Source of the DNA: a virus
Taxonomy: Duplodnaviria; Caudoviricetes
Length of the DNA: 64,000 nt
Virus record (IMG/VR): IMGVR_UViG_3300028602_002388
Span: 1,590-65,589 of that record
Reading direction: 5' to 3' (one strand)
The translations under genes and the position numbers were made by a program. The notes under the pieces were generated by a model that saw only the letters and a program-made list of their open reading frames with translations, was not told the origin of the DNA and searched no databases. Below, piece by piece: positions 7,498 to 64,000 of this stretch (the stretch's first letter is position 1; every line of letters starts with the position of its first letter).

Positions 7498-8907
7498 ATG
7501 TTAAAGTTAAAACAAATTGATGGATTAATAGCTGCTTTAAACAATAAGGCTTCAAAGGCAGTAATTGAAAGTGGTAGTTACACAAAGGTAACTGTTAACA
7601 ATGAAGGAATTGTTACCGGCGGTAATAATTTAAATAGCGCCGATTTGCCTATAGTGCCTGTAACAAAGGGCGGCACTGGATTATCTTCGCTTACTTCAGG
7701 GAGTTTCTTAAGAGGTGATGGTACTGGTAATGTATCGTTAAGAACTGCTGCACAAGTTAAGTCAGATATTGAATTGGGTAATGTAACTAATCATGCACAA
7801 GTTAGGAAGGCTGTGAGTTCCACTGACGGTGTTATTCCAAAGTGGAGCGGTGCAGATGGCGTTTCTATTATTGATGGCTTTACTCCCAGAACCACGTTAA
7901 GGGCGTCTGCATCTGCTGATGATGTTAGTATTGCTACGGAGAAAGCTGTGCGAACGGCTGTTGATGCTATAGCAATGGCTGTTGATGCTATGGATTACAA
8001 GGGTGCTATAGACGCCTCCACAAATCCTAACTACCCTGCTGCGAGCAAGGGGGATACTTATAAGTTTTCGGCTAACGGAAAGATAGGTGGGGCAAACGGG
8101 GTAACAGTCTATCTTGGGGATTTTATGATATGTGTGCGTGATACCGTAGGGGGCACTCAGGGAACTGTAGGCGAGGATTGGGATGTTTTTCATTTAAATC
8201 GTGAGGGAGAGGTTATAGGTCCCTCATCGGCCACGAATGGCAATATATCCGTTTTTGACGGCACTACCGGAAAATTGATAAAGGACGGTGGTGTTGGCGT
8301 TGATGCTTTACTTGGGAAGTTAGACTATGCGTATTCGATAGATGCTTCTTCAAATCCTAACTATCCTGCTGCGAGTAAGGGGCAGGTTTTTGATATAAGT
8401 GTTGCGGGAAAGATCGGTGGTGTCAATGGTGTTGAGGTTGGGGTTGGAGATTTGTTGATCTGTTTACAGAATGTGTTAGGGGGCGCACAGGGTGAAGTAG
8501 GTAGTTCATGGGCAAGGATAAGGCGTCCTAACGAGGTATTGGGACCGTCATCTTCTGCTAATAACAGGATAGCCGTCTTTGACGGCACTACCGGAAAATT
8601 GATAAAAGACGGTGGTAGTACAATTGCAGATATTGTCTCAGGACAAGCAAATTTGCGTAACAAGCAGCATAAGATAACCGGCAATGAGGGGAGCATGGCT
8701 ACTGTGATAACTATTACAAACGCCTTGACAGAGAGTGTAATGAGCGGGACTGTTCCTACGTTTAGTGTTAATGGGTTAAGCTATCCTATGGGTGATTATG
8801 CCAGCCTTAATATAGGAGAATGGGCGTTTTCAGGTTCATCAATACGTGTACGGCTTCCTTATAATCTTGAAACAGATGATGTAATATTGATAATTTATAA
8901 TTATTAA
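7498..8907 (+). CDS. Tail fibre-like protein with a duplicated ~108-aa internal module
   Basis: Gly-rich; DASTNPNYPAASKG and GPSS...VFDGTTGKLIKDGG each occur twice. Confidence 0.55.
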   Translation: MLKLKQIDGLIAALNNKASKAVIESGSYTKVTVNNEGIVTGGNNLNSADLPIVPVTKGGTGLSSLTSGSFLRGDGTGNVSLRTAAQVKSDIELGNVTNHAQVRKAVSSTDGVIPKWSGADGVSIIDGFTPRTTLRASASADDVSIATEKAVRTAVDAIAMAVDAMDYKGAIDASTNPNYPAASKGDTYKFSANGKIGGANGVTVYLGDFMICVRDTVGGTQGTVGEDWDVFHLNREGEVIGPSSATNGNISVFDGTTGKLIKDGGVGVDALLGKLDYAYSIDASSNPNYPAASKGQVFDISVAGKIGGVNGVEVGVGDLLICLQNVLGGAQGEVGSSWARIRRPNEVLGPSSSANNRIAVFDGTTGKLIKDGGSTIADIVSGQANLRNKQHKITGNEGSMATVITITNALTESVMSGTVPTFSVNGLSYPMGDYASLNIGEWAFSGSSIRVRLPYNLETDDVILIIYNY

Positions 8908-8909
8908 AA

Positions 8910-9431
8910 ATGATAAAGATAAAACAGGTAAGTGGCTTACAGACAGAATTGGACAAAATTCAAACTACTAAGTTTATTATTCCTGCTGCGGCCATGTTAC
9001 CTATGACTGATGCGTCTGCTTACTATCTCGAAGGATCTATTCCTACTATGGTGTTTGACCATCTGACGAACACATCAGTAAAAGCTCAACTGTGGGATTA
9101 TGAGATCCCACAAGCTGTAGCCAGAATAAAGGCAAGAGTGATTGGTAAGACAGCTGATGAGGTAACTGGAGAACAATTTGCTATGCTTGCAGTTGAAGCC
9201 CAATGGGTAGGAACAAACATTGCGTCAGTAACATTTAATCCAAGAACCGAATTTACAATAACAGGGGATGAAAAACTTGTTTATTCTAATAAAACTACGG
9301 CTTTTTCTATTGATGGCACACGCACAATAGGTTGTGGCTTATGGATAACTTTAAAACGTGTTGCTTTACATAATGTTGATGATTTGACGCAGCCATTAAT
9401 GATTGCGTGGCTTGAAATAGAGTTTTTATGA
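8910..9431 (+). CDS. Hypothetical tail-associated protein
   Basis: 173-aa ORF; N-terminus MIKIKQVSGL parallels MLKLKQIDGL of the upstream gene. Confidence 0.45.
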   Translation: MIKIKQVSGLQTELDKIQTTKFIIPAAAMLPMTDASAYYLEGSIPTMVFDHLTNTSVKAQLWDYEIPQAVARIKARVIGKTADEVTGEQFAMLAVEAQWVGTNIASVTFNPRTEFTITGDEKLVYSNKTTAFSIDGTRTIGCGLWITLKRVALHNVDDLTQPLMIAWLEIEFL

Positions 9432-10519
9432 TAAGGCGTTATAATTATAGGGTTGCTTTGGGTGAGGCGACATTTGAGTTGTTGCCTACAGGTGATGGCA
9501 CGGGTTATGCTATATTAAGAATGGAGGCAAGTGAGACGACGACACTTTCTATTCGTGGTGGGGATGCTAAGTTTTACACAGACAATAGCGGTGCTGGTGA
9601 GAGTTCCACATGGACTATTACAAGTGGTGCTATACGGTCAATATTTGTTAAGTGTACCTCAAGGTCGTTACTTGTTTTTCCAAAGCAGGGTGTTATAACA
9701 AAATGGGGGATTAGTACATCGTTAAACGGGTGGAGTTCTGAAATTAATGCTCCTTTAATTAGTAGTGTAGGCTTCCCTTTACGTAATTTAACACACCTAC
9801 ATTTATCAGGACAATGTGAGTTTTCAGGTTCGCTGCCAAGCGGGTTGACTTATCTTTATTTATTAAGCTCTAACATCAATTGGACGTTTTCAGGTTCGCT
9901 GCCAAGCGGGTTGACTTCTTTAATCCTAAATGGCTCTAACATTAATTGGACGTATTCAGGTTCGCTGCCAAGCGGGTTGACTTATCTTTATTTATTAGGC
10001 ACTAACATCAATTGGACGTATTCAGGTTCGCTGCCAAGCGGGTTGACTTCTTTAATCCTATATGGCACTAACATCAATTGGACGTATTCAGGTTCGCTGC
10101 CAAGCGGGTTGACTTCTTTAATCCTATATGGCACTAACATCAATTGGACGTATTCAGGTTCGCTGCCAAGCGGGTTGACTTCTTTAACCCTATATGGCAC
10201 TAACATCAATTGGACGGCATTTGATGCTTCAGGTTCAGGGAATATTACTACTTATTATAGATTACTTGATTTTGTAACAACTGCTTTTTCGGTTACGAAT
10301 TTCATTAGTCTATTACAGTCAATGGTAAGTAGGGTTGGCGGTTTACCTACCACTTGCTTTATTAGTAATTATGATAATAATCCTACTCCTGATGAGATTA
10401 AAAATGCAACTCCTAATCAATCCGGCACTGATGCGGAAAAGGCAAAACATTGGGTGGAGCAGTTAAGGTCTGTGAAGGGAGTTACCTCATTAATTTTAAA
10501 TAATACAAATATTAGTTAA
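9428..10519 (+). CDS. FNIP/leucine-rich-repeat-like protein, possible receptor-binding protein
   Basis: About six 22-aa repeats SGSLPSGLTSLxLxGTNINWT. Confidence 0.55.
   Translation: MIRRYNYRVALGEATFELLPTGDGTGYAILRMEASETTTLSIRGGDAKFYTDNSGAGESSTWTITSGAIRSIFVKCTSRSLLVFPKQGVITKWGISTSLNGWSSEINAPLISSVGFPLRNLTHLHLSGQCEFSGSLPSGLTYLYLLSSNINWTFSGSLPSGLTSLILNGSNINWTYSGSLPSGLTYLYLLGTNINWTYSGSLPSGLTSLILYGTNINWTYSGSLPSGLTSLILYGTNINWTYSGSLPSGLTSLTLYGTNINWTAFDASGSGNITTYYRLLDFVTTAFSVTNFISLLQSMVSRVGGLPTTCFISNYDNNPTPDEIKNATPNQSGTDAEKAKHWVEQLRSVKGVTSLILNNTNIS
9821..10216 (+). repeat. 66-bp tandem repeat (~6 units) inside the LRR-like gene
   Basis: Near-identical units ...tcaggttcgctgccaagcgggttgact... at 66-bp period. 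Confidence 0.95.
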
Positions 10520-14310: not shown

Positions 14311-14492
14311 CTGTCAATAATTTCAGTTTTTATATCAGTAATTATTGGTAACGAATTTCGTTTTCCAATTTTTATGAATGATAACACTTTTTCAAGTGCT
14401 TTTTTTTCACTTGAGATGTTATCAATAACGATGGAGTGGGGATATTTTTCTTTTTCACTCCATTTTAGTATGCAACATACTTTTATTGTCAT
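14307..14492 (-). CDS. Hypothetical protein
   Basis: 61-aa ORF, translationally coupled. Confidence 0.45.
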   Translation of the reverse strand: MTIKVCCILKWSEKEKYPHSIVIDNISSEKKALEKVLSFIKIGKRNSLPIITDIKTEIIDR

Positions 14493-14887
14493 TATTTTTT
14501 TAAATATGTTTTTATTATTTGTTTAAACCCATCAAATGAATAACAAACCTCACATTTATAATTTTGTTCTGTGAGTTTGTTCATCATTATTTTTTGGGCT
14601 ATTGTTGGTTTGTTGTTTCCAAACTTCATTTCAATAAATAGTCCGTTATGTTCTGAAGATGGCACAGAAAGAAATAGGTCTGGGACTCCTTTTTGTACTC
14701 CTTCATTTTTCAGCTTTTTTGCTGTTATTTTGTTTCGTAATCCTCCATTAGGAATTGCAAAAAGCAGTTCTTTAATATCATTATACTGAAGACGAAACCA
14801 CTTAACGCATTCCTGTTGAAGAATACTTTCATGTTGGTTAGTATTTTTTCTTTTACTATTTTTCAGTATTATTTTTTGATGGTTCAT
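14492..14887 (-). CDS. VRR-NUC domain nuclease
   Basis: ESILQQECVKWFRLQY, FAIPNGG, GVPDL and FIEMK motifs. Confidence 0.85.
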   Translation of the reverse strand: MNHQKIILKNSKRKNTNQHESILQQECVKWFRLQYNDIKELLFAIPNGGLRNKITAKKLKNEGVQKGVPDLFLSVPSSEHNGLFIEMKFGNNKPTIAQKIMMNKLTEQNYKCEVCYSFDGFKQIIKTYLKK

Positions 14888-15024
14888 TTTACTCCCCCTT
14901 CTCTTTTCCTTTTTTCCTCTTTATATAATTTATTATTTTCATTCAACTTTTTTGCTTTATAGAGCAAAAAAAGTAATGCCCCTAACAGGCTTAAATAGAT
15001 ACTGATTATTATTATCATTTTCAT
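14884..15024 (-). CDS. 46-aa membrane peptide (not in the ORF track)
   Basis: MKMIIIISIYLSLLGALLFLLYKAKKLNENNKLYKEEKRKREGGVK; its stop overlaps the VRR-NUC ATG. Confidence 0.55.
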   Translation of the reverse strand: MKMIIIISIYLSLLGALLFLLYKAKKLNENNKLYKEEKRKREGGVK

Positions 15025-16674: not shown

Positions 16675-17794
16675 TTTTCAACAAATTTTTTTGGATTAAT
16701 TCGGTTATTTGATTTTTATTAAATTTTTTTTTTAAATTGTTTCCCAATTGAGGAAGTGTACTTCCTTTGCGTACAAAGTAGCGCAAATTTCCTTCTTCCT
16801 CAAAATCTATATATTCACAATTATTGTGAAGAAATTCGATGAGAATTTCATTTTTATTTTTTTGTTTTATTTCGTTTAGTGTTGAAATAATTGATGCTAT
16901 ATAAGCATCTTTTTTACCTTTTTTCAAAAGTGTTTCAGACCCCATAATAGAGGTTTTATTTTTTCTATAGTTTTCCTTAACGAACATTTCGGCTGTTTTA
17001 TTACTACCGACTTTTGGTTCAAGCATTTGAATTTGATGCTTACATTCGTTATAATATTGTTCATCGCCGACCATTTGTGCTTTTTCCATTTGTTCTACCC
17101 ATTTTTTTGCAGGTAAAACATGGTCATACCAAAATTTATATGTTTGGTCAATGATAAGTTCACAAATCTCGTAATTTATTTCAAATGGGAATACATCTAA
17201 GTATCTCCCATTTTTCAATATTGCCAATTCTCCATAGTCAGCCTCTAACAGCAGTAAGGCTGTGTTCAATTGTGTTAAATAAGATGGGTCTATTCCGGCT
17301 TCCCATTTTGCCGCTGAGAACCCTTCTGTTGTTTTTATTTCAAGTACACCCTCTTTTTCGAGAGGCTTGCCTGTTATTAGACTAAAACCACCTTTTTTAT
17401 TTATCATCCTATCTACATTAACGAATAGCCAATCATACATTTTGTTTTTGACTATTGCATTTAATTTTTTACATCGTCTTATAATTTTTCCATTGTTTAT
17501 ATTATTAATGTAGCTTGGATTATTATATTCATCTTTTTTCCCATCCCATCCTTGCCAGCACATAGCTACATATTCTTCAAGGTTTCTACCATGGAACATT
17601 GCTTCATTATCTTTTATAGGTTTTTTAAAACCTAATTTTTGATAAAAAAGCACTAATGGGTCGGAATAGTCATCCGCATAAAGTACTGTTCGTACTTCTG
17701 ATGCGCCAATTCCGTTTAACCTGAATTGATGCCATTTCTCGCTTCGATAAGGTATTTGATATCGTTCGATATTTGTTTTTTGTTTTTTTTTCAT
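16661..17794 (-). CDS. yqaJ: YqaJ-like (lambda-exonuclease family) recombination nuclease
   Basis: WHQFRLNGIGASE, MFHGRNLEEYV, NVD and LEIKT motifs. Confidence 0.85.
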   Translation of the reverse strand: MKKKQKTNIERYQIPYRSEKWHQFRLNGIGASEVRTVLYADDYSDPLVLFYQKLGFKKPIKDNEAMFHGRNLEEYVAMCWQGWDGKKDEYNNPSYINNINNGKIIRRCKKLNAIVKNKMYDWLFVNVDRMINKKGGFSLITGKPLEKEGVLEIKTTEGFSAAKWEAGIDPSYLTQLNTALLLLEADYGELAILKNGRYLDVFPFEINYEICELIIDQTYKFWYDHVLPAKKWVEQMEKAQMVGDEQYYNECKHQIQMLEPKVGSNKTAEMFVKENYRKNKTSIMGSETLLKKGKKDAYIASIISTLNEIKQKNKNEILIEFLHNNCEYIDFEEEGNLRYFVRKGSTLPQLGNNLKKKFNKNQITELIQKNLLKNDFF

Positions 17795-17821
17795 GTTTAT
17801 TTAAATGTTTGTTTTTTGTTT

Positions 17822-17844
17822 TAACATTCGTAGATTCTATGTTA
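17822..17844 (+). other. attI-like recombination site 1 (TAACATTCGTAGATTCTATG|TTA)
   Basis: Same 23-mer family at four backbone/cassette junctions; TAACAT...ATGTTA inverted arms. Confidence 0.55.
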
Positions 17845-17853
17845 CCTGCAAGG

Positions 17854-18066
17854 CTAACATCCTGCATCACAAGTATAATTTGGCGTTTTAATTCCCAACA
17901 TAATTCTGAAAGTTCCGATAACTACTGCATAAGTAATCATATCATCTGACTTCCACTTTCTAAATCCTGTTGAATATGCTTTATGAACACCAGGAACTTT
18001 TTTGGCAGTTTTAGGAAATTTGTTAAACGCCAAATAATACTTCTTGTTTTGAAATGCTTTATACAT
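17854..18066 (-). CDS. Small cassette gene, hypothetical
   Basis: 70-aa ORF between attI-like sites 1 and 2. Confidence 0.5.
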   Translation of the reverse strand: MYKAFQNKKYYLAFNKFPKTAKKVPGVHKAYSTGFRKWKSDDMITYAVVIGTFRIMLGIKTPNYTCDAGC

Positions 18067-18118
18067 TATTTGTTTTTTGTTTTTTTTTCATGTTTATTTA
18101 AATGTTTGTTTTTTGTTT

Positions 18119-18141
18119 TAACATTCGTAGATTCTATGTTA
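18119..18141 (+). other. attI-like recombination site 2
   Basis: Identical to site 1. Confidence 0.55.
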
Positions 18142-18534
18142 CCTGCTACCGTATGGTGACACATCCTCAATCCCTGCTTCAATCATTCTACGCTTCAATG
18201 TGTTTGCAAAAAAATCATCTTGCGGGAAAAATGAATAATCACATTGCTTATATATTCGTGAAAGCCTATCAAGGACGCAGTTAAACCATTCCTTGTATTG
18301 CTCTTCCCAAGCATAATTCTGCAACTCAAAATAATTTATTGTAGTTTCATTTTTCCCAAATGGTTTATACCTCATCCCTTCAATGCGTTTTTCACGACCA
18401 ATCATAGTTTGGTAAGGTCTAACAATGTGAGACAAAATAAATTCGTGGTACTGGTCGTTACGAATAACGGCAGCAGGTAACACACGTTTGGCGTCATTTG
18501 GGCTGACGTCTAAGCCTTGAACATTAGTTTCCAT
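18139..18534 (-). CDS. Small cassette gene, hypothetical; its start lies inside an attC-like palindrome
   Basis: 131 aa; stop coincides with the GTTA of site 2. Confidence 0.6.
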   Translation of the reverse strand: METNVQGLDVSPNDAKRVLPAAVIRNDQYHEFILSHIVRPYQTMIGREKRIEGMRYKPFGKNETTINYFELQNYAWEEQYKEWFNCVLDRLSRIYKQCDYSFFPQDDFFANTLKRRMIEAGIEDVSPYGSR

Positions 18535-18605
18535 ATTTATCTTTTATTTTAAGTTGAACATTTGTTTTACAAAATCCCAAACGAATGCCAAGCGTGGGAA
18601 CGTTA
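18478..18605 (+). other. attC-like site (128 bp)
   Basis: TAAC-a-cacgtttggcgtcatttggg ... cccaaacgaatgccaagcgtg-ggaac-GTTA imperfect palindrome. Confidence 0.7.
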
Positions 18606-18838
18606 AGTAACTCCTCCGCTTTTAATTTCTTCTTCTCAATATCTTCAATTAAATAACCCCGCAGGCTTCTCTCGTCATGTGAAAAAAATCGTGCTTCATT
18701 AAGCATTTGGCGAAACAAGTTCATAAACTCAACCGTTGCCTCTGCTCGTTGTAAATCTGATAAACCAGCCGCTAACACACGGTTAGTGCAATTGCCGTTT
18801 TCGATAGTATTCGTAGTTTCTGCCAAGCGGGGTCTCAA
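18524..18838 (-). CDS. Small cassette gene; native start probably destroyed by the hairpin/CRISPR junction
   Basis: ...ETTNTIENGNCTNRVLAAG leader parallels METNV...KRVLPAA of the neighbour; half attC from 18773. Confidence 0.45.
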   Translation of the reverse strand: MRPRLAETTNTIENGNCTNRVLAAGLSDLQRAEATVEFMNLFRQMLNEARFFSHDERSLRGYLIEDIEKKKLKAEELLNVPTLGIRLGFCKTNVQLKIKDKYGN

Positions 18839-18872
18839 CTGCCGATCAGGCAGTTGAGACCCCGCTTGGCAG
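18820..18872. repeat. Perfect 24-bp inverted repeat with 5-nt loop, built from CRISPR repeat and spacer sequence
   Basis: ctgccaagcggggtctcaactgcc-gatca-ggcagttgagaccccgcttggcag. Confidence 0.95.
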
Positions 18873-19291
18873 CGAACCTGAATACGTCCAATTGCTAACT
18901 TTACATTAACTGCCTGATCGGCAATTGAGACTCATTACGTGTTAATGTATGTATCTGACCATTGCTAACTTTACATTAACTGCCTGATCGGCAATTGAGA
19001 CCTTTTTTCCTCTTTATATAATTTGTCATTGTCATTCACTAACTTTACATTAACTGCCTGATCGGCAATTGAGACTCAATCGGATAGCTCGGAAGATAGA
19101 TAGTTACTTTCGCTAACTTTACATTAACTGCCTGATCGGCAATTGAGACTAAACAAAGCTAAAGTCTCTAAAAGTCAGTTTGCTAACTTTACATTAACTG
19201 CCTGATCGGCAATTGAGACTATGTTTTTACTATTTGTTTAAACTCATCAAATGACTAACTTTACATTAACTGCCTGATTGGCAATTGAGAC
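18861..19291 (+). CRISPR. Orphan CRISPR array: 6 x 37-bp repeat CTAACTTTACATTAACTGCCTGATCGGCAATTGAGAC, 6 spacers of 33-37 bp, class 1 (type III-like)
   Basis: Repeats start at 18895, 18965, 19039, 19113, 19183 and 19255 (last has 1 mismatch). The TGCC/GGCA stem is followed by exactly 8 nt, ATTGAGAC. No cas genes in the window. Confidence 0.95.
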
Positions 19292-19308
19292 CCGACCCTA
19301 TTTCATTT

Positions 19309-19593
19309 CAAAGAACTTTTTCTCTAAAAAAAGGGAACGGGGTTTTATTTCCGTTCCCTTTACTCAACTAACATCTTAATTTAAAAACCCACATTGCAAA
19401 GGTAATAATATTATTTTTTAAAAAACAAGTTTTTAATGAATATTTTTTTAAATATTTTTTTAAACATATTGTTAATTTGTCTAAGTGTGTATGATTATCA
19501 ATAAGTTACATCATTATTTAGAATGGTTATAAAATATAAATTAAATGTTTAATAATGATTTTTTTAAGTTAAACATTCGTAAATTTTATGTTA
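19309..19593 (-). promoter_or_regulatory. Repeated promoter-terminator element, copy 1
   Basis: TACCTTTG (- strand 19397-19404) with an upstream TTG at Bacteroidota spacing; GGGAACGG/CCGTTCCC stem plus T7 about 65 nt downstream. Confidence 0.75.
19571..19593 (+). other. attI-like recombination site 3 (AAACATTCGTAAATTTTATG|TTA)
   Basis: 20/23 identical to sites 1 and 2; host-type cassette leader begins immediately after. Confidence 0.6.
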
Positions 19594-19818
19594 CCGCCAA
19601 GTGTAAAAAGACAGACGACAGCGGACAAATTGCTACTTAAAGACAGAAAAAGAAAAAACGATAAAATGAACAGCCAACGCACAAAACAGCACATTTGCAA
19701 ACCGCACAAGCTGACACACGACCGAAGTTTGCAAAAGAGCTGTTTTCTTGCCGACGCACCAGCGGATATTGATATATTTGCTGTTAATTGAAAATGAATT
19801 TTAAATAAGGACTAAATA

Positions 19819-22705: not shown

Positions 22706-22806
22706 TTTTCATGATTTTTCCCAACTCTTTTAAGACATTCTTTAATAATTACATTTTGCAGAAATAAGATTGTTCAATTTTTTCCGAGAGTGCAAAAAAA
22801 ATAAAA

Positions 22807-23903: not shown

Positions 23904-24110
23904 ATGTGCTAAACATAAATTAATTCAAATGAAATTTTGTAAAAAAGGAGGAGGTATTTACCTCCTCCAATAAAACAACAAAAAAGAAACTGATTGTTAG
24001 CTTGTAATGGACAAACATGTAATTAAGGACAAACCAAATCAACAAAATTAAAAGAAAGCAGGAGGAGGCTAACAATCTTTATTTTAATTATTTTTTTAAC
24101 AATGAATAAT

Positions 24111-24406
24111 CAAAGAACTTTTTCTCTAAAAAAAAGGGAACGGGGTTTTATTTCCGTTCCCTTTACTCAACTAACATCTTAATTTAAAAACCCATGAAAA
24201 AAATCACGTTACAAAGATAATATTATTTTTAAAAAAACAAGTTTTTAATGAATATTTTTTTAAACATTTTTTTTAAACATATTGTTAATTTGTCTAAGTG
24301 TGTATGATTATCAATAAGTTACATCATTATTTAGAATGGTTATAAAATATAAATTAAATGTTTAATAATGATTTTTTTAAGTTAAACATTCGTAAATTTT
24401 ATGTTA
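24111..24406 (-). promoter_or_regulatory. Repeated promoter-terminator element, copy 2
   Basis: Nearly identical to copy 1; TATCTTTG at 24212-24219 (- strand). Confidence 0.75.
24384..24406 (+). other. attI-like recombination site 4
   Basis: Identical to site 3; followed by G|TTAGC, the start of the type III cassette. Confidence 0.6.
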
Positions 24407-24793
24407 GCTGCAAGCGTATTACGACACGACACAACAGAAAATGACCGTTAAACAGACAAGAAAAGAGTAAACCATTTTGACAGGTGACAAACAACATAAA
24501 GACCAAATTTCAACAGGACATTTGAGCCGACACTCAAACCGACCTAATGTTTTTTATTTTTTTCCCACCGCACATTTTTTAAAACCATTTTTGAAAGACA
24601 GCCAACGCACAGCAAGCACATTTGCATTTTTGCCAACCCGCAAGCCGACCCAAAAAATGCAAAAGAGCTTGCTCTTGCCTACGCACCCAAGCCCACCCAC
24701 CACCCTACCAGCGAACAAGTGGATTTCCAGAGAAAAACGGGCAGACAACGGTATTAAATTTTAACTTTGACAATTGGAAAATTGAAGTAATAA

Positions 24794-34845: not shown

Positions 34846-36045
34846 TTAGTTATTATCCATTGGCATTAAAAGATAAGTTATTTTATTAGTAACCTCGTTG
34901 TTTATTATAGGTTTTATAATAAAAGGTTTATTATTGTCTTCAGAGAAGTAAATCATTACAAAATTACTTGGGCAATTTTTGAGGATTTCAAGCAAATAGT
35001 GATAATTGAAAATGAAGGAGTAAGCGTTTGGAAAGTTGCCCGAAATAGGAATAAAATCACAACCGCTGTTGTTTGTTTCTTCATCAAATGTAAAGACATT
35101 TAGCCTCCCATTATCAGTAATGAATTTAACACTATTTGTTTTTTTAGTTGTTAATGGTTTTAGGCGCTCAATTATATTGATAAGTAAATTTTTATCAATT
35201 CTTATTTTGTAAGATTGATTTTTAGGGATAACCGCCTGGTAGTTTGGGAACTGGCCAGGAAATAAAGAAGTGGTAAAAATTTTATTGTTAAATGCAAAGG
35301 TAATAATTTCAGTGTTATAGTTAATCATACATAATTTATTAGCTTTTTTTAGGACGTTTAAAAACTTTGTTATTTCTGTTGCATTAACATTTAACGGATG
35401 TTTTAAAGAAATAGGGTTATTTATTTCGTAAACGACGAGTTTATGGGCGTCAGTGGCTGCGAATGTTAATTTAATATCATTATCATTATCATTATTTGAA
35501 TTGTTAATATTTATGTTATTTAATGCAGGACGGAGGTCGTCATTACTTGCTGCAAAGGAGGTTGTTTTTAGTGCTTGAAACAGTTCCTGACTATAGAGAT
35601 AAAATGAACAGTTATCATTTTGTTTGGCTATTGGTTGCTGTGGAAAGGATGCGGTTTGCTCTTCATGGCAATTCATTGTTATTATTGTTTCTTCAAAGGC
35701 TAACTGTAACTTAAAATCATTAATAGAATAATTAAAAATTAATTCGTTGCTTTTGATTGTTTTGATTATTTTAATTAGTGTTTTAGCATCAATGGTAAAA
35801 ATAGCCGTTTTTTCAATTGATAAATTTTTAATTGGGATTATTGAAGTTAACCAGCTATCTAAATTTGTAGCTATTATTTGTAATTTATTGTTAGAAACTG
35901 TAAAGAAAAGATTTTGTGTGATTAAATCATTTTGCAAGTGTGTGAAGTGTTTTAAATGGTTTAACTCATTAAGTAAAATTTTTTTTTCGATTTGAAATTT
36001 TACTAATCCAATGGTTTCGTCAAATGTTTGATCAATTTTTTTCAT
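34846..36045 (-). CDS. dnaN: DNA polymerase III beta sliding clamp
   Basis: LQIIATNLD, AATDAHKL, GQFPNYQAVIP, FNYHYLLEIL and LLMPM motifs. Confidence 0.9.
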   Translation of the reverse strand: MKKIDQTFDETIGLVKFQIEKKILLNELNHLKHFTHLQNDLITQNLFFTVSNNKLQIIATNLDSWLTSIIPIKNLSIEKTAIFTIDAKTLIKIIKTIKSNELIFNYSINDFKLQLAFEETIITMNCHEEQTASFPQQPIAKQNDNCSFYLYSQELFQALKTTSFAASNDDLRPALNNININNSNNDNDNDIKLTFAATDAHKLVVYEINNPISLKHPLNVNATEITKFLNVLKKANKLCMINYNTEIITFAFNNKIFTTSLFPGQFPNYQAVIPKNQSYKIRIDKNLLINIIERLKPLTTKKTNSVKFITDNGRLNVFTFDEETNNSGCDFIPISGNFPNAYSFIFNYHYLLEILKNCPSNFVMIYFSEDNNKPFIIKPIINNEVTNKITYLLMPMDNN

Positions 36046-39016: not shown

Positions 39017-40239
39017 AACAGACTGAACAACAGACTGAACAACAGACTGAACAACAGACTGAACAACAGACTGAACAACAGACTGAACAACAGACTGAAC
39101 AACAGACTGAACAACAGACTGAACAACAGACTTTAAATATTCTTATTCGTACTTCTGATAGGCCTTTTTATTTTAAGAGGTGTATTGACAGTATTTGTCA
39201 TGCCAAAGGAAACTATAAAATTAAAGTTTTAGTTTCTGTTGATAACAAAAATTCAGAAAATTATTCTAAAGAGATACTTTTACAAAGCAATCTTGATTTT
39301 GAGATTATTTTTGTTATTAAGGGTAGCAGGGATTTTTATTATAATCTTTATCTTAATAAGCTTCTTGATAAAGCCGAAGGGTGGGTGTGGATTATTGATG
39401 ATGATGATACAGTTTTAGATATGGATTTTAAACTTTCAGATAAAAGGGTTGTTTATATTTTCAAATCTAATTATTTTGGGCGTTCACTTCCAGAAGATGA
39501 ATATTGGGAAACGATAACGGAATGCCATATTGCTATGCACTGTTTTATTTTTCATACTGAAGGATTACGGTCGGAATTTGATAATCAACGAAGGGCTGAT
39601 TACAGATTTATTAAGCATTTAAGTTCTTACAGAAAAGTTGAATGGATAGATAAGGTTGTAGCCGTTGTTGATAAAAAGGGTTACGGTTCATGCAATGATT
39701 TACCGGCAAGTATAGATTTTGTTGTTCCTTATGCTTTTGACAAGAATCTTGGTAAAGAATATAATCGGATATTTGAACAGTCGAAAGCCGATTACGTTTG
39801 TATTATGGATGGTGATATTTTGTTTTTTCAAAATAGTTTTGGTCATTTTATTTCTAACGTTATTTCTAAAAATTACGATGGTGCAATTTTTACTTGTGTT
39901 ACTAATCGAATAGGTAATCCTGAACAACGGATAGATAAAAAAATATCATCAGATGCTAATATTTTAAGACACAAGAAGATTGCTCTTAAAAGAAGGCGTA
40001 AATACGGATATTTTGTTACTCAAGCCCACATGCGAACATCAATGCTTATCAGTATTATTTCCAAAAAGGTATGGAATGAGATAAGGTTTAATGAAGGTTT
40101 GAAAGGTATTGATTGGCAATTCACACAATCAGTTCTTGATAAAGGATTTCCTATATATATCATGCAGGGGCTTTACGTCTTCCACCTCTATAGATTAGGT
40201 GATGGCGGCGTTTATTACACAAAACATTTAGATTGTTAA
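39013..40239 (+). CDS. Two-domain GT-A (family 2-like) glycosyltransferase with N-terminal QQTE repeats
   Basis: NILIRTSDRP...WIIDDDD (DxD) and DFVVPY...CIMDGD (second DxD). Confidence 0.75.
   Translation: MKQTEQQTEQQTEQQTEQQTEQQTEQQTEQQTEQQTEQQTLNILIRTSDRPFYFKRCIDSICHAKGNYKIKVLVSVDNKNSENYSKEILLQSNLDFEIIFVIKGSRDFYYNLYLNKLLDKAEGWVWIIDDDDTVLDMDFKLSDKRVVYIFKSNYFGRSLPEDEYWETITECHIAMHCFIFHTEGLRSEFDNQRRADYRFIKHLSSYRKVEWIDKVVAVVDKKGYGSCNDLPASIDFVVPYAFDKNLGKEYNRIFEQSKADYVCIMDGDILFFQNSFGHFISNVISKNYDGAIFTCVTNRIGNPEQRIDKKISSDANILRHKKIALKRRRKYGYFVTQAHMRTSMLISIISKKVWNEIRFNEGLKGIDWQFTQSVLDKGFPIYIMQGLYVFHLYRLGDGGVYYTKHLDC
39019..39132 (+). repeat. 12-bp minisatellite (CAGACTGAACAA) x ~9.5
   Basis: Encodes QQTE repeats right after the start codon. 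Confidence 0.95.
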
Positions 40240-43109: not shown

Positions 43110-43133
43110 ATTGATATGTGAAAATGCAACTTT

Positions 43134-43333
43134 TAATCATTCTAAATAATTGTGTAATTTATTGATAATCATACGTACTTAGACAGATTAACAATATGTT
43201 TAAAAAAATATTCATTAAAAACTTGTTTTTTTAAAAATTATATTATTACTTTTGCAATGTGGGTTTTTTAATTATTTGTGTTAATGAAGGGAACGGGAAT
43301 AAAACCCCGTTCCATTTTTTTAGGGAAAAAGTT
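43134..43333 (+). promoter_or_regulatory. Repeated promoter-terminator element, copy 3 (inverted, lacks the attI-like end)
   Basis: CTTG-N21-TACTTTTG at 43247-43254, then gggaacggg...cccgttcc stem and T run. Confidence 0.7.
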
Positions 43334-43376
43334 TTTTGATTTTTTTAAGTATTCACTAAAAGAAAACGCTTAAGAG

Positions 43377-44250: not shown

Positions 44251-44497
44251 TTTATTAAACATTTAATTTCTATTTTATAATCATTCTAAATAATGGTGTA
44301 ACTTATTGATAATCATACGTACTTAGACAGATTAACAATATGTTTGAAAAAATGTTTAAAAAAATATTCATTAAAAATTTGTTTTTTTAAAAATTATATT
44401 ATCTTTGTAACGTAATTTTTTTCATGGGTCTAAATGTTAGTTGAATAAAGGGAATGGAAATAAAATTCGTTCCCTTTTTTTAGGGAAAAAGTTCTTT
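44251..44497 (+). promoter_or_regulatory. Repeated promoter-terminator element, copy 4 (inverted)
   Basis: TATCTTTG at 44400-44407, gggaat...ttccc stem plus T7; resembles copy 2. Confidence 0.7.
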
Positions 44498-47234: not shown

Positions 47235-48391
47235 CAATGAATGACAGTTTAATAGATCAAATGTTTGAAAGTGCGCTTGGAATAAGCAAGCCTAATGAAC
47301 AACAGACTGTGCAACAGACTGAACAACAGACTGAACAACAGACTGAACAACAGACTGTGCAACAGACTGAACAACAGACTGTGCAACAGACTGTGCAACA
47401 GACTGTGCAACAGACTGAACAACAGACTGAACAACAGACTGTTGTTAATAAAGAACCCATTAAGGGTGAGGATGTAAAAGAAAAGTCTGTAGAAAAATTG
47501 AAGGACAAAAAGGGAGAGGTTAGTTTTTTAGAGAGGAACTTTCCTAAAGAAGAAAACTTTAAGACTTTAGAAGAAGAAAATAAAAGGCTTAAAGAGGATT
47601 ATAATAAGTTACGTAATTCTATGTTAGGATTTGAAGAAGGTATTAATCCTGATTATCTTAGATTACATAAGATAGAAAAAGATAATCCAAAGCTGGCAAG
47701 TGTATATAAAAGGTTACTGTTAGGTAATCTTACGAGTAAGGAATATCTTATGATGTCTATGGTAATGAATGATCCTGACCTTGCTGAAGATAAAGAAATG
47801 CTTAACATGCTGTTGGAGGAGAAATATCCAGGTTTGTTTGACGAGTATTCTGAACCGGAATCAAAAGAATATAAGAAAAGCATGAAACTCTTTGAATATG
47901 ATGCGAAAAAGGCAGAACAAATGTTACGACAGGAGTTTGAGAAGATAGAAGTTCCTAAATTTAAAGATAATGATGTAAAAGATAAAACCAACAAGGTATT
48001 TGAAACATGGAGGGATTTTGATTTTTCTAATAAGGATTTAACGACAGTGAATGTTTCATTGTCGGGGGATAAAGAAGGGGAGACTGTTCCTTTCATGGAT
48101 ATTGAAATACCTGAAAAGGAAAGAGATAGGTATTTAAAGGCTGCGCTTGTCTATATGATTGAAAGAGGTATAGAGAATGGGAAGGATAGTGGAGATATGT
48201 TGAAAAAGTTAGTAACAGGGATGTGGATAGGTGAGAACCTAAACACATATAACCGACTTGTTATTGAACAGCGGATGAGGATGAGCGACCGTGAGTGGCG
48301 GAAGTTTATTCATCATCCTAAAGAACAGAAAACAAATATAAGCACTTCTGAAAAAGACCTTATCGAAACCATGTTTGATGAAATAAGGTAG
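47231..48391 (+). CDS. Putative capsid scaffolding protein with QQT(E/V) repeats
   Basis: Acidic, helical, lies between portal and capsid. Confidence 0.55.
   Translation: MTMNDSLIDQMFESALGISKPNEQQTVQQTEQQTEQQTEQQTVQQTEQQTVQQTVQQTVQQTEQQTEQQTVVNKEPIKGEDVKEKSVEKLKDKKGEVSFLERNFPKEENFKTLEEENKRLKEDYNKLRNSMLGFEEGINPDYLRLHKIEKDNPKLASVYKRLLLGNLTSKEYLMMSMVMNDPDLAEDKEMLNMLLEEKYPGLFDEYSEPESKEYKKSMKLFEYDAKKAEQMLRQEFEKIEVPKFKDNDVKDKTNKVFETWRDFDFSNKDLTTVNVSLSGDKEGETVPFMDIEIPEKERDRYLKAALVYMIERGIENGKDSGDMLKKLVTGMWIGENLNTYNRLVIEQRMRMSDREWRKFIHHPKEQKTNISTSEKDLIETMFDEIR
47297..47443 (+). repeat. 12-bp minisatellite x ~12 (QQTE/QQTV)
   Basis: Same unit as at 39019 and 63680. Confidence 0.95.
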
Positions 48392-54531: not shown

Positions 54532-55257
54532 TTGTTAATTGATAAGATGGACACACACGGATTGGTAAAAATAGATCATGTAGTTCTTTCATTTTTGAAT
54601 GAGAGGAATGAAGGGTTTGAAAATTACATGCGTTACAAGCAGATAGTTATTGAGGGTTTGACGCAAGAGTTAGGTGTTTCTCATTCGGAAGGAACAAAGA
54701 TTTATTATTCTGTTGTTAATGAGGTAAATAATGTTTATTTACCTGCTGATTACATAACTTATTCAAGGATAGGTATTGTTATCAATGGTCAGATACATAC
54801 ATTAACACGTAATGACAGGCTTGTCATGCCTGAAAAGGTTGTGTGTGGTGTTGAGGAGGTTAATAGAGACCTTTTGGAGAAGCTTAATTTACCTTTAAAG
54901 TTGAACTATGCTAAAGGTGGTGGGTATAATGTTGGAGAATTTAGAGTTGATGATCGGGAGCGTGTAATACGTTTCAGGGGTGCGCTTGCAGGCAAGTTAG
55001 TTGTGGTTGAATATAAAAGTTCAGGCATCTCTCTTGATTCACAGACATTTATCCCTGTAATGATGATACCTACTTTGAAAGAATATTTAGAATATACTCT
55101 TATAAAAAGAGATAGGGATGTGCCTGAAGTAAAGGTTGAACGTTGTCGTCGTCAGTATTTGGAGGCTAAGCGGCAATACATTAAAAGGAAAAATCCTTTT
55201 AATATTTATGATATATTAGATGTTATTAATCAAGGAAGGTCGCAGGGGGTGAAATGA
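54532..55257 (+). CDS. Tail ring-like structural protein; target of CRISPR spacer 1
   Basis: VYLPADYITYSRIG motif; start may be the ATG at 54547. Confidence 0.5.
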   Translation: MLIDKMDTHGLVKIDHVVLSFLNERNEGFENYMRYKQIVIEGLTQELGVSHSEGTKIYYSVVNEVNNVYLPADYITYSRIGIVINGQIHTLTRNDRLVMPEKVVCGVEEVNRDLLEKLNLPLKLNYAKGGGYNVGEFRVDDRERVIRFRGALAGKLVVVEYKSSGISLDSQTFIPVMMIPTLKEYLEYTLIKRDRDVPEVKVERCRRQYLEAKRQYIKRKNPFNIYDILDVINQGRSQGVK

Positions 55258-60864: not shown

Positions 60865-63800
60865 AATAAAATACGTTGAGTTAGTTGAAAGATTAAAAAG
60901 GGATATTGATTTACCTGAAGGGGTTGATGATGTATTTTTGGTAAAGGCCTTTTTTGATAAAAACCCAAAGGCAGCAGAAGGTGTTGATATGGAAGATGTT
61001 ACTATTCCAGAACGATACGATGTTGGTACAATGGCTAAAATTATACGCCATGAAGTTGGTAAATTTGATGGAACAGATGAAGAACTTGTAAATCTGTTCT
61101 TGGAGAAAAATCCTTCTTACAAGGACCAGGTTGATTTAAAAAAAAAAGATTTCAATATTTACGAGGCTACTCAAGAAGGTTTAGGTTATATTGGTGGAAA
61201 AAAAGAAACAGAGAAACGTAGTAATGATCCTATAGGATACATTCAGGAGGATATTGATAAACTTGTGAAGGAAAAGGATAGATTAGAGCGTAAGTCAATA
61301 GTAACGAGTACTAAAGATATTGCATGGTCGAGGTCGATATATACTGGAGATAAAAAGTTTAGTTCCTCTGATGATGCTGTTGAATATGAAAGGATAAATA
61401 AAAAAATATTGGAACTTGAAGATCAGAAGCGCAAGCTTGAAGTACAAATTGAGCGTAAACGCTTAGATAATAAGTATGCGCCTCATTATGAGAGTTATAA
61501 AGAATATATTAAGAATGTTCCTGATGATATAGATGTATTAAAGAATGAGAAGGAGCGGGAATTAAAAGATATAGCTAAGTCTGGGGCTGGTTACAAAGAG
61601 TTTGTTTATGGTAGAACTATGTATGCTTACAAGCCTACACCTATATTGGAAGATGAGGAAAGTCGTAAACGGTATGATCAGCTACAGCGTGAGGTTAAGG
61701 AACTTGATGCTCTTAAATCTTTACGCATGGAGGATGCTTATGCATTAAGCACTGACCTTGATGCGGAGTCAAGACAAGAGTTAAGATATTATATTAAACA
61801 GCGTGTAGAGGAAGATGAAGTTAAACGACAAGCTAATAAGTTGTTTAGGGAGAAATATCCTGATAAGTTATACCCTGATGAGGCGGTTGAAAAGTTTACG
61901 ATTGAGGTAGAAAGATTGTTTGCTGATGCATCAAGGCTTAAAGGTGAGTTATTAAACAAAGCTAAAGTCTCTAAAAGTCAGTTTGATTTAGAGATGAAAG
62001 AGTTAGATGCGTCAATAGAGGCTGAATTATTACAAAAGAAAGCGGAGCTGGAGCAGATGTATGATGCCGGCGCTATTTCTGTTGATGATGCTAATCGTCA
62101 GCTTGAAGAACTAAGAAAGAATAAAACGTTGATATATAATGAACATATTCGCAGATATAACAGCAATGTTATTGATGCTTTGAATAACGCTCATATAAGT
62201 CTTTTTGATACGTTTAAGGGCAAACTAAGTGATTTGGAGCGTGAGTATGGAGTTACTATTGACGGGAAGTTATCTAAAGATGTAGTTGATAGGTATGAAG
62301 ATGTGTTTGCGGAGGTTTATGCGGAACGGCAACGATTCTCGATGGCTAAATGGAATGCTCTTCCACGTAGTGCGCAGATAGCTATGTCGTTTTCTGCTGG
62401 TGTTTTAGATTTATTTAATTCTATCGGTGGAGGCCTTAATTGGTTAGGGTATTATGAAGCAGGTAACTATTTATCGGATATGGCGATGGATTTTTACAAG
62501 AGTGCGGATATTCCTGTTTTTGAGTTAGACAAGTTGCTAACTCCTGATTGGTGGATCGCCAATGGCGTGCGTACACTTCCCTTTACTCTTTCTCTTTTAC
62601 CTACAGGTTATGGAGTTACTTTAGGGTTATCAAGTGCATTGGCAAGGACGGCTATGCCTGTCTTATTAAGACAATTAGTGGCAGGAGCTGGAGGAGCTTT
62701 AATTAATCGTCCGATAGAAGGATGGTTTAATGCGGGTGGATCATTTAATGAGGCAATGGAAATGGGAATGTCTGTTGAACAAGCTTCGCAAGTTGCCGCA
62801 GATGTGATGAAGAATGAAGCATTTTTATATTTTAATGATGCCATGCAACTGGGTTTAGCGTTTACGCCTGCAAAAGGTTTCTTGTCAAAATTATTATTGT
62901 TTCTTTATGAAGGTGCATCGGAGGGAATAGAGGAGTTATTGCAAGGTTATTGGCAGCATAATGCAATAGCCAGACGTGATGATGAAACTCCTATTTTGTC
63001 ATTGATGGAATATGCTAAGACGGATATGGCTCTTACAGAGATGATATTAGGGACTGCTACAGGATTGGCTTTTCAGGGAGGGGCGGAGACTATCAAGTAT
63101 ATAGCAGGTATGAAAAATATTGATGCTGACAAATTTGCTGAAGATAAGATTACTAATTACATGATAACAAATTTCTTTTCAGATGAGGAGAGTAATGTTC
63201 CATTAGAAAAACGTAGGGATGATGCTTTTAATATGATAGATGTTTTTATGGAGCGGGGTTCGCTTACAGAAGAACAGGCTGACTATCATAAGAAAATGAC
63301 AAATTATGCTTATGAACTCAAGGTTAGTGGACTTGGTTTTGATGAAGATACAAGGGTTGCGCTATTGGAATATTATGGTAATATTCTTGCTTCCGAATTA
63401 TTGCTTAGCAAATTAGGTGATAAAAATATTGACGCTGCAATAAGTGAAAAGTTAAATAGGCAGCGTGCTGATTTACAAAAGATGTTATCAGGTGAAATTG
63501 CTATTTACATGATAAATGAGTCAATCATTAGTAATGAGCAATTTAAGAAGTTTATAGATGATCCTTTGTTTATAGAAAAGTTTGTTAATGATAACATAAA
63601 GGTTAAGGTTGTAAACAGTGATTTGACGCTTATGGATAAATTGGCTCAAAGAGCTGATGAGTTTACAAAGTATAAACAACAACAGGCTGAACAACAGACT
63701 GAACAACAGACTGAACAACAGACTGAACAACAGACTGAACAACAGGCTGAACAACAGACTGAACAACAGACTGAACAACAGACTGAACAACAGGCTGAAC

Positions 63801-64000
63801 AACAGACTGAACAACAGACTGAACAACAGACTGAACAACAGGCTGAACAACAGACTGAACAACAGACTGAACAACAGACTGAACAACAGACTGAACAACA
63901 GACTGAACAACAGACTGAACAACAGACTGAACAACAGGCTGAACAACAGGCTGAACAACAGGCTGAACAACAGGCTGAACAACAGACTGAACAACAGGCT
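60854..64000 (+). CDS. Giant virion/cargo protein, N-terminal part (3'-partial, >1049 aa; absent from the ORF track)
   Basis: ATG at 60854 (MKDKIKYVELVERLK...) overlaps the previous stop; frame holds at the points checked and ends in QQ(T/A)E repeats; target of spacer 4. Confidence 0.75.
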   Translation, partial: MKDKIKYVELVERLKRDIDLPEGVDDVFLVKAFFDKNPKAAEGVDMEDVTIPERYDVGTMAKIIRHEVGKFDGTDEELVNLFLEKNPSYKDQVDLKKKDFNIYEATQEGLGYIGGKKETEKRSNDPIGYIQEDIDKLVKEKDRLERKSIVTSTKDIAWSRSIYTGDKKFSSSDDAVEYERINKKILELEDQKRKLEVQIERKRLDNKYAPHYESYKEYIKNVPDDIDVLKNEKERELKDIAKSGAGYKEFVYGRTMYAYKPTPILEDEESRKRYDQLQREVKELDALKSLRMEDAYALSTDLDAESRQELRYYIKQRVEEDEVKRQANKLFREKYPDKLYPDEAVEKFTIEVERLFADASRLKGELLNKAKVSKSQFDLEMKELDASIEAELLQKKAELEQMYDAGAISVDDANRQLEELRKNKTLIYNEHIRRYNSNVIDALNNAHISLFDTFKGKLSDLEREYGVTIDGKLSKDVVDRYEDVFAEVYAERQRFSMAKWNALPRSAQIAMSFSAGVLDLFNSIGGGLNWLGYYEAGNYLSDMAMDFYKSADIPVFELDKLLTPDWWIANGVRTLPFTLSLLPTGYGVTLGLSSALARTAMPVLLRQLVAGAGGALINRPIEGWFNAGGSFNEAMEMGMSVEQASQVAADVMKNEAFLYFNDAMQLGLAFTPAKGFLSKLLLFLYEGASEGIEELLQGYWQHNAIARRDDETPILSLMEYAKTDMALTEMILGTATGLAFQGGAETIKYIAGMKNIDADKFAEDKITNYMITNFFSDEESNVPLEKRRDDAFNMIDVFMERGSLTEEQADYHKKMTNYAYELKVSGLGFDEDTRVALLEYYGNILASELLLSKLGDKNIDAAISEKLNRQRADLQKMLSGEIAIYMINESIISNEQFKKFIDDPLFIEKFVNDNIKVKVVNSDLTLMDKLAQRADEFTKYKQQQAEQQTEQQTEQQTEQQTEQQAEQQTEQQTEQQTEQQAEQQTEQQTEQQTEQQAEQQTEQQTEQQTEQQTEQQTEQQTEQQTEQQAEQQAEQQAEQQAEQQTEQQA
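63680..64000 (+). repeat. 12-bp minisatellite x ~27 (QQTE/QQAE), runs off the window
   Basis: caacag(a/g)ctgaa units. Confidence 0.95.

Follow-up and report, generated by a model that had tools for sequence, protein, structure and literature searches.

Why would a natural phage lineage carry, and keep, a verbatim piece of host immune memory directed against itself? This paradox is posed by a stretch of 64,000 nucleotides (nt) of a Caudoviricetes phage, hereafter the window, which corresponds to bases 1590-65589 of the 65,589-bp single-contig virus record IMGVR_UViG_3300028602_002388 and in whose positions all coordinates are given unless a contig is named. Between 18861 and 19291, the window holds a CRISPR array without cas genes, which an earlier note on this DNA, made without database searches, had described as a host anti-phage memory carried by its own target. 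The origin, structure, orientation, and persistence of this array can be read directly from a host locus that shares four of its spacers and from related phages: it is a leaderless fragment captured from a host type III-B array. What it does for the phage is a separate question, for which an antisense decoy is the favoured answer and a neutral relic a close rival.

A host type III-B array on a phage genome

The array comprises six 37-nt repeats on the plus strand (starts 18895, 18965, 19039, 19113, 19183, and 19255; span 18895-19291), five of which are identical while the last (19255) carries a single C-to-T change, and six plus-strand spacers of 33-37 nt, namely S0 (18861-18894, 34 nt), S1 (18932-18964), S2 (19002-19038), S3 (19076-19112), S4 (19150-19182), and S5 (19220-19254). 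The regular spacing of identical direct repeats and the unique spacers of similar size are those of a CRISPR array, and S0 is a true spacer, because full repeats stand on either side of it in the related phage contig L016. RNA folding predicts that the repeat forms a short hairpin and leaves its 3' end, AUUGAGAC, as an 8-nt tag. The repeat is identical to that of arrays adjoining type III-B cas genes on the host contigs L004 and L012. The leader, in turn, is missing: no similarity to the host leader was found, the first repeat has been cut short and merged into a palindrome, and a search upstream gave no promoter motif of the Bacteroidota type. That the array is phage-borne and cas-less, as first proposed, is borne out by the content of the record, which codes for a large terminase, a DnaB helicase, a sliding clamp, a RecE/YqaJ exonuclease, a VRR-NUC nuclease, methyltransferases, an endolysin, and tail-fibre and virion proteins, and in which tblastn with nine host cas-locus proteins detected no cas gene (best E = 0.2).

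Five of the six spacers match the genome that carries them. S0 is the exact reverse complement of 10009-10042, 10075-10108, and 10141-10174 and has one mismatch at 9877 and 9943; these five protospacers (9877-10174, plus strand) lie in the 66-bp tandem repeats of a FNIP/LRR-like repeat gene (9428-10519), and the S0 CRISPR RNA (crRNA) sense is complementary to the messenger RNA (mRNA) of that gene. S1 aligns over 33/33 nt to the minus strand of 54783-54815, within a plus-strand virion structural protein gene (54532-55257), while S4 matches 61953-61985 over 33/33 nt on the plus strand of a giant gene (60854 to the end of the window), so that its crRNA would share the sense of the giant-gene mRNA. 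S2 matches 14909-14945 over 34/37 nt (three mismatches), in an intergenic position within the leftward operon, and S5 matches 14505-14539 over 33/35 nt (two mismatches), in the VRR-NUC gene (14492-14887), both protospacers being assigned to the minus strand. Exact matches of 33-34 nt in 65.6 kb cannot be due to chance. All the self-matches listed in the earlier note proved correct on re-comparison, and its failure to place S3 was repeated in a renewed search of the window and of the 9-11-kb loci of ten relatives, the first 1,589 bases of the record lying outside this search. Likewise, its count of crRNAs complementary to the mRNA of the matched gene (4/5 matched spacers) was reproduced from the gene strands, a proportion that is not statistically significant at n = 5.

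In type III systems, pairing of the crRNA tag with a complementary anti-tag beside the target marks the target as self and prevents the activation of Cas10, a self/non-self discrimination reportedly established by Marraffini and Sontheimer in 2010 and by later Csm/Cmr biochemistry. The flanks of the genomic protospacers are identical to the tag at only 1-3 of 8 positions, and host crRNAs against S0, S1, S2, and S5 should therefore be able to activate a type III response. The spacers do not spare their carrier, since S0, S1, and S4 match it exactly without an anti-tag.

The source of the array emerges from a scan of public collections with the repeat core, which retrieved a contig (L001) of a Lentimicrobium metagenome-assembled genome (MAG) and 13 metagenome loci. 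L004 and L012 represent one host locus (99.6% identity), and L004 carries, in order, a SLATT-domain gene, a 536-amino-acid (aa) open reading frame (ORF) that has no family match and occupies the position expected for Cmr1, then Cas10/Cmr2, Cmr3, Cmr4, Cmr5, Cmr6, a 1018-aa adaptation gene that fuses Cas6, a reverse transcriptase (RT), and Cas1, and Cas2, followed by a ~420-bp AT-rich leader and by an array of the same repeat co-oriented with the cas genes. The host system is thus type III-B (Cmr2-6, Cas6-RT-Cas1, Cas2), in agreement with the type III system postulated beforehand, and the RT-Cas1 fusion offers a ready account of why spacer length varies and why most spacers oppose mRNAs. Spacers 7-10 of the L004 array are S2, S3, S4, and S5 in the same order: the block R-S2-R-S3-R-S4-R-S5-R (R, repeat) is 100% identical over 327 bp between the window (18965-19291) and L004 (11653-11979), includes the T-variant repeat after S5, and loses identity within 1 nt on either side. 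These four consecutive spacers uphold the idea of a host memory riding on its own target.

The host copy has the leader and the cas genes, while the phage copy lacks them and is truncated, which makes host-to-phage transfer the parsimonious direction. As the spacers match phage genes, the host must have gained them by adaptation, and their match to the carrier is explained by acquisition from this phage or its kin. L004 lacks S0 and S1 and has six different newer spacers in their place, which points to a sister host lineage as the donor, one that would have added S1 and then S0 after S2. The exactness of the leader-proximal, newer S0 and S1 and the mismatches of the older S2 and S5 fit this order of acquisition. 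Separately, the newest, leader-proximal spacer of L004 nearly matches the phage at ~22745-22782 (6 + 23 nt with a 3-nt indel between them), a site that is conserved, which suggests that the host lineage is still acquiring spacers from relatives of the phage and that the conflict is ongoing.

The repeat comparison advised in the earlier note as a way to the host and its cas subtype also yielded a taxonomic assignment. Past the host array, the DNA shares 95-97% identity with the Lentimicrobium MAG and three further long contigs, and on this flank and the repeat variants the host is assigned to the Bacteroidota as a Lentimicrobium-like bacterium. The MAG itself yielded no copy of the host RT-Cas1, and 23 genomes of its family gave only matches of ~36% identity. 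The host locus L012 and the array-bearing phage contig L009 come from one metagenome, Ga0255342. In its distal part (L004:12014-13003), the host array consists of repeated units in which variant repeats surround a single conserved pseudo-spacer of 36 nt, TAAACACGCCGCGGGCGTTGAGCGTAGTCGAAACGC, with a strong hairpin behind them. Such units also occur in the Lentimicrobium-like contigs L001, L002, L003, L006, L008, and L014, with no cas genes within the 3-14 kb examined, and could represent mini-arrays of a crRNA-like regulatory or CreA-like kind, or else a mobile element derived from the repeat.

Relatives and junctions of the array

The array is not confined to one assembly. As to the earlier suggestion to look for it in relatives, 16 further contigs from 16 other assemblies hold it between the same phage flanks and in uniform orientation, which brings the number of assemblies to 17 with that of the record analysed here. 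Six were retrieved through the repeat (L005, L007, L009, L010, L011, and L013) and ten (L015-L024) by a search that made no use of the repeat but started from the exact RecE/YqaJ protein, which is indexed in 194 blocks of the searched collection; the array is present in 10/10 of the latter. No array-free variant was seen among the lineage contigs sampled, despite frequent local deletions. Scans of viral contigs with the repeat, the repeat core, and both flanks gave no match, nor did a scan of a phage GenBank collection, and a search of viral contigs for the RecE-like protein returned no relative. One contig, L017 (an ENA assembly; 65,155 bp), has exactly the architecture of the window.

The spacer content varies among these phages. 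The full S0-S5 set is found in the window, L007, and L017; S0 is duplicated in L016, S3-S4 in L015, and S4 in L019, which has also lost S1. Conversely, L005 retains S0, S1, S4, and S5; L021 retains S0 and S2-S5; L022 lacks S3; L010 and L011 keep S2-S5, L009 and L024 S0 and S5, and L020 S5 alone. The longest arrays reach 8 repeats. These gains and losses are readily accounted for by ordinary repeat-repeat recombination, while point mutations in the spacers are almost nil (one single-nucleotide polymorphism, in S0 of L018). The S2 and S5 protospacer alleles are identical in all ten relatives compared.

The recurrence of the junctions decides the fate of the most prosaic explanation, an assembly chimera in which a host array was mis-joined into a phage contig through k-mers shared by spacers and protospacers. 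The 327 bp of identity between host and phage can mislead assemblers, and the contig L023 (ENA ERZ27249271 k141_136978) does pass from the phage left flank through S1-S5 into a host-type downstream array that includes host spacer 11 and pseudo-spacer units; this contig arose either by mis-assembly through the 327 bp in common or by true recombination between phage and host. L023 is, at the same time, the exception to a right junction that is constant in the contigs reaching it (15/16 relatives). The same right junction and nested left junctions in 16 other assemblies (JGI and ENA, the ENA names carrying k141), the lack of any sequence shared with the host locus at either junction, and the location of the array at no protospacer effectively refute the chimera.

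The left border records how the fragment was sealed. A perfect palindrome of 53 bp (18820-18872, with no strand of its own), made of 24-bp arms and a 5-nt loop, replaces the leader. Each arm consists of the last 12 nt of the repeat and the first 12 nt of S0, with one repeat base changed so as to perfect the stem, and the centre of the palindrome is the repeat's own hairpin loop; the predicted fold has -56.6 kcal/mol (z = -11). The loop reads GATCA in the window, L005, L009, L016, and L017 and TGATC in L007 and L020, i.e., it occurs in both orientations. The palindrome adjoins a small minus-strand ORF whose start codon has been replaced. Such a structure is suggestive of fold-back priming or template switching at a quasi-palindrome. 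In the proposed course of events, the captured fragment would have begun inside the repeat that lies upstream of S0 and ended where the repeat behind S5 ends, and its left end would have been closed by fold-back or template-switch synthesis at the repeat hairpin, giving the 53-bp palindrome. All the other left junctions can be derived from this form: the one in L013 by recombination between a pseudo-repeat and a downstream repeat, those in L010 and L011 by deletion between two GCAATTG heptamers, and those in L015, L018, L019, L021, L022, and L024 by deletion between the ACCCCGC heptamers at 18657-18663 and 18859-18865. An origin from complementary DNA made by the host RT was also considered, and the ends of the fragment lie off the Cas6 cut sites. 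On the right, a 16-nt plus-strand segment (19292-19307) between the last repeat and a four-copy promoter/terminator element has no second copy in the phage and may stem from the phage or from the beginning of a donor spacer.

A contiguous block of array beside a recombination-prone site, with a right end that falls exactly at the end of a repeat, is also what a pick-up akin to specialised transduction would leave, in which a temperate phage integrated into CRISPR repeats and then excised imprecisely; integration of a prophage into CRISPR repeats has reportedly been described in Streptococcus pyogenes. This route is very improbable. In the record, rated 74% complete, neither a tyrosine or serine recombinase (integrase/resolvase families PF00589 and PF00239) was found nor a repressor or lysogeny module identified, and the phage looks virulent because no integrase was found.

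Transcription and function of the captured array

Gene order and promoter motifs predict that the phage reads the array in antisense. All ORFs between 13638 and 18838 lie on the minus strand, and on the other side of the array a Bacteroidota-type promoter (19397-19432, minus strand; TTG, a spacer, and TACCTTTG) points leftwards into it. The promoter belongs to a ~240-nt element present in four copies (19292-19613, 24110-24413, 43131-43339, and 44252-44497) and is kept in 4/4 of them; in each, it is followed ~65 nt on by an intrinsic terminator, and co-directional genes lie beyond in at least three of the four copies. At the array, the terminator (19323-19361, minus strand), an 11-bp stem followed by U7, lies between the leftward promoter and the array. 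The element could be a multi-copy small RNA or an attenuator requiring antitermination. Between 17500 and 20000, the full motif (TTG, spacer, TAnnTTTG) has just two occurrences, one per strand (19773, plus; 19404, minus), and the sense side of the array showed no Bacteroidota promoter motif. The plus-strand motif stands 46 nt before the ATG (19819) of a methyltransferase gene, and the same motif is directly upstream of the gene starts at 36045 and 38157, which lends it some credibility. Read leftwards, the window has the promoter/terminator element, the antisense array, and the leftward recombination genes; in relatives of the L018 type, the methyltransferase, promoter element, antisense array, ORF70, and RecE are fully co-directional. 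Phage transcription reaching the array would be antisense, provided that the terminator is read through. The phage probably does not make S0-S5 crRNAs, as the missing leader, the minus-strand ORFs, and the placement of the motifs make sense crRNAs from its copy unlikely, and such crRNAs would be suicidal.

These observations bear on the exclusion of kin, in which a sense transcript would be processed by the host Cas6 into crRNAs that guide the host Cmr complex against co-infecting relatives. Targeting of related viruses is the established role of viral cas-less mini-arrays with host-identical repeats, exemplified by the SPV1/SPV2 portogloboviruses and by prophage mini-arrays (PMC11656645). In the array, S2 and S5 differ from the carrier alleles by 3 and 2 nt, respectively, as if aimed at a sister allele, and a sigma-70-type promoter in the sense direction (18995-19022; 11/12 positions) arises from TTGAGA at the end of a repeat and TATAAT in S2, a promoter that is probably irrelevant in a Bacteroidota host. 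However, type III systems tolerate 2-3 mismatches, and the matches of S0 (at 5 sites), S1, and S4 to the carrier have no protective anti-tag, so that sense crRNAs would hit the carrier itself. Moreover, neither a leader nor an upstream Bacteroidota promoter motif was found, S0 stands without an upstream repeat and tag in six relatives and is hence not processable there, and the uniform S2 and S5 protospacers of the ten relatives reveal no sister allele to be targeted. Exclusion of kin is, on balance, improbable.

The favoured reading, to which a probability of about 35% is given, is that the array serves as an antisense "anti-crRNA" decoy with perfect anti-tags; the transcription, the binding, and the benefit of the antisense RNA are here inferred from the sequence. 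The phage would transcribe the array in antisense from the promoter/attenuator element of the leftward operon, and in the resulting RNA each protospacer would be followed, directly on its 3' side, by the perfect 8-nt anti-tag GUCUCAAU, the complementarity to the tag being 8/8 by construction and 7/8 for S0. Type III complexes would read such a target as self, binding and cutting it without Cas10 being switched on, and the antisense RNA would soak up precisely those host Cmr-crRNA complexes that recognise the phage. In addition, the RNA may pair with the host pre-crRNA over the 327-nt block and at every repeat, thereby blocking its processing by Cas6. The outcome would be an RNA counter-defence made from stolen immune memory. 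In support of the decoy, the array occurs in every lineage contig sampled, always in the same orientation, while the cassettes around it vary. That it constitutes a sequence-specific, updatable, target-mimic RNA anti-CRISPR, renewed by recombination between phage and host arrays, is a further reading, given a somewhat lower probability.

Several points weigh against the decoy. The direction of transcription is deduced solely from gene order and motifs, enrichment of the promoter motif over shuffled sequences is only ~2.4-fold, and the host leader too is without a consensus match, so that the missing sense-side motif is weak evidence. The strong terminator at 19323-19361 intervenes, and the antisense RNA would need read-through or antitermination. 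The orientation stems from one capture event with a 50% prior and would be equally expected if the opposite orientation were lethal. Most spacers have been lost in some relatives, down to S5 alone in L020 and to S0 and S5 in L009 and L024, which gives no sign that each decoy unit is kept by selection. Cmr4 cuts anti-tag targets and type III complexes release them, and the decoy would have to be abundant relative to the late mRNAs. Lastly, no description of an anti-tag decoy was found in the literature searched.

Alternatively, the array may be a neutral relic, which is considered about as likely as the decoy, the exclusion of kin being less likely than either. In this case, a single illegitimate pick-up in a recombination-prone region would have left a leaderless array in a silent orientation, which hitch-hiked to fixation and is now slowly decaying by repeat-repeat deletions. 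The numerous deletion and duplication variants, with as few as one spacer, fit such a decay, as do the erosion of the left junction through microhomology deletions at GCAATTG and ACCCCGC and the retention of S3 with no target in the window or in the searched loci of the relatives. Moreover, the insertion destroyed the start of the small cassette ORF, and the terminator shields the array from the nearby promoter. Conversely, a relic fits poorly with an array that is present in all the lineage contigs sampled, including the 10/10 retrieved without the repeat, despite widely differing cassettes, with the failure to observe an array-free variant where local deletions are frequent, and with spacers that are nearly free of point mutations.

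Genomic setting, known systems, and meaning

The region around the array is made of swappable accessory cassettes (methyltransferases and restriction-modification genes). On its lower-coordinate side, the comparison with L007, L011, and L015-L024 delimits an accessory hot spot at 17770-18601; the segment 18142-18601, which codes for a 131-aa ORF, is missing in L007; of two 75-bp direct repeats (17770-17844 and 18067-18141), the second adjoins it on its left. On the higher-coordinate side, the methyltransferase or restriction-modification cassettes differ among relatives. Just downstream of VRR-NUC, within the leftward operon, L015, L018, L019, L021, and L022 carry an IS605 OrfB/TnpB (Cas12f-like) gene (~8511-9680 of the locus), where the window has small ORFs. 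The genome has a GC content of 34%. No AcrIII-1 ring nuclease and no tRNAs were found in it, and no Rfam family reached the gathering score, the weak matches over the promoter/terminator element and the palindrome being noise. A 12-nt minisatellite of the giant gene, AACAACAGACTG, occurs at 63678-64000 and in bases 1-300 of the record and recurs in two other genes (39017-39132 and 47296-47441). The contig thus starts and ends inside the same minisatellite, and the assembly therefore probably broke in this repeat of a near-complete, circularly permuted genome.

Among known systems, the viral mini-arrays (PMC11656645) come closest in being cas-less and virus-borne, with host-identical repeats and spacers that match viral genes of the same lineage. 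They differ in having 1-2 spacers, whereas the phage array reaches 8 repeats, has no leader, lies antisense to the local promoter and operon, bears three spacers that are exact on the carrier, and shares four consecutive spacers with their repeats with a host array. A second group consists of RNA anti-CRISPRs, namely solitary repeat units termed Racr (PMC10651486) and viral crRNA-like regulatory RNAs termed Cracr (bioRxiv 10.1101/2024.10.29.618823). Racr and Cracr, too, are non-coding, phage-encoded copies of host CRISPR repeats, and for them the subversion of host Cas complexes has been proposed or demonstrated. In contrast to the RNA proposed here, an antisense target mimic with genuine host spacers, they act in sense, loading Cas proteins with a useless or regulatory guide. 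Nor does the array look like them: they are a solitary repeat, or a repeat and a pseudo-spacer, under their own sense promoter, and Cracr spacers match host cas or toxin promoters, while the comparison of S0-S5 with the host cas region gave array-array matches only.

The decoy would resemble host self-protection by tag:anti-tag pairing in that the antisense array RNA has the full 8-nt tag complement beside each target; this pairing is known as a host safeguard against autoimmunity, and its use by a phage is the hypothesis put forward here. The donor system, rather than the phage element, resembles the RT-Cas1 type III-B system of Marinomonas mediterranea MMB-1, which acquires spacers from RNA and DNA in either orientation (PMC5576922); the features in common with that system are Cas6-RT-Cas1, Cas2, Cmr, a variable spacer length, and a majority of spacers opposed to mRNAs. 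A further point of contact is that a phage and a host CRISPR locus physically exchange DNA. Spacer-mediated recombination between phages and CRISPR loci and prophage integration into CRISPR repeats have reportedly been studied in the Marraffini laboratory. Unlike in those cases, the present array does not sit at any protospacer, the record yielded no integrase, and the borders are formed by a fold-back palindrome on one side and by the clean end of a repeat on the other. No precedent emerged from literature searches for an anti-tag decoy, for a viral anti-crRNA, for phage arrays directed at the carrier, or for phage copies of self-directed host spacers. New are the multi-spacer block taken verbatim from a host array and the several spacers exact on the carrier, together with the missing leader, the fold-back scar at the border, and the antisense placement.

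For the biology of phages and their hosts, the locus shows that CRISPR memory can flow from a host to the very virus that the memory targets. If the antisense decoy is true, it would be the first target-mimic anti-CRISPR, in which the self/non-self rule of type III systems is turned on the host, and it would suggest a simple means of disabling type III systems one guide at a time. A neutral array, too, would provide a dated marker of recombination between phage and host and a well-resolved series of CRISPR array rearrangements on a virus.

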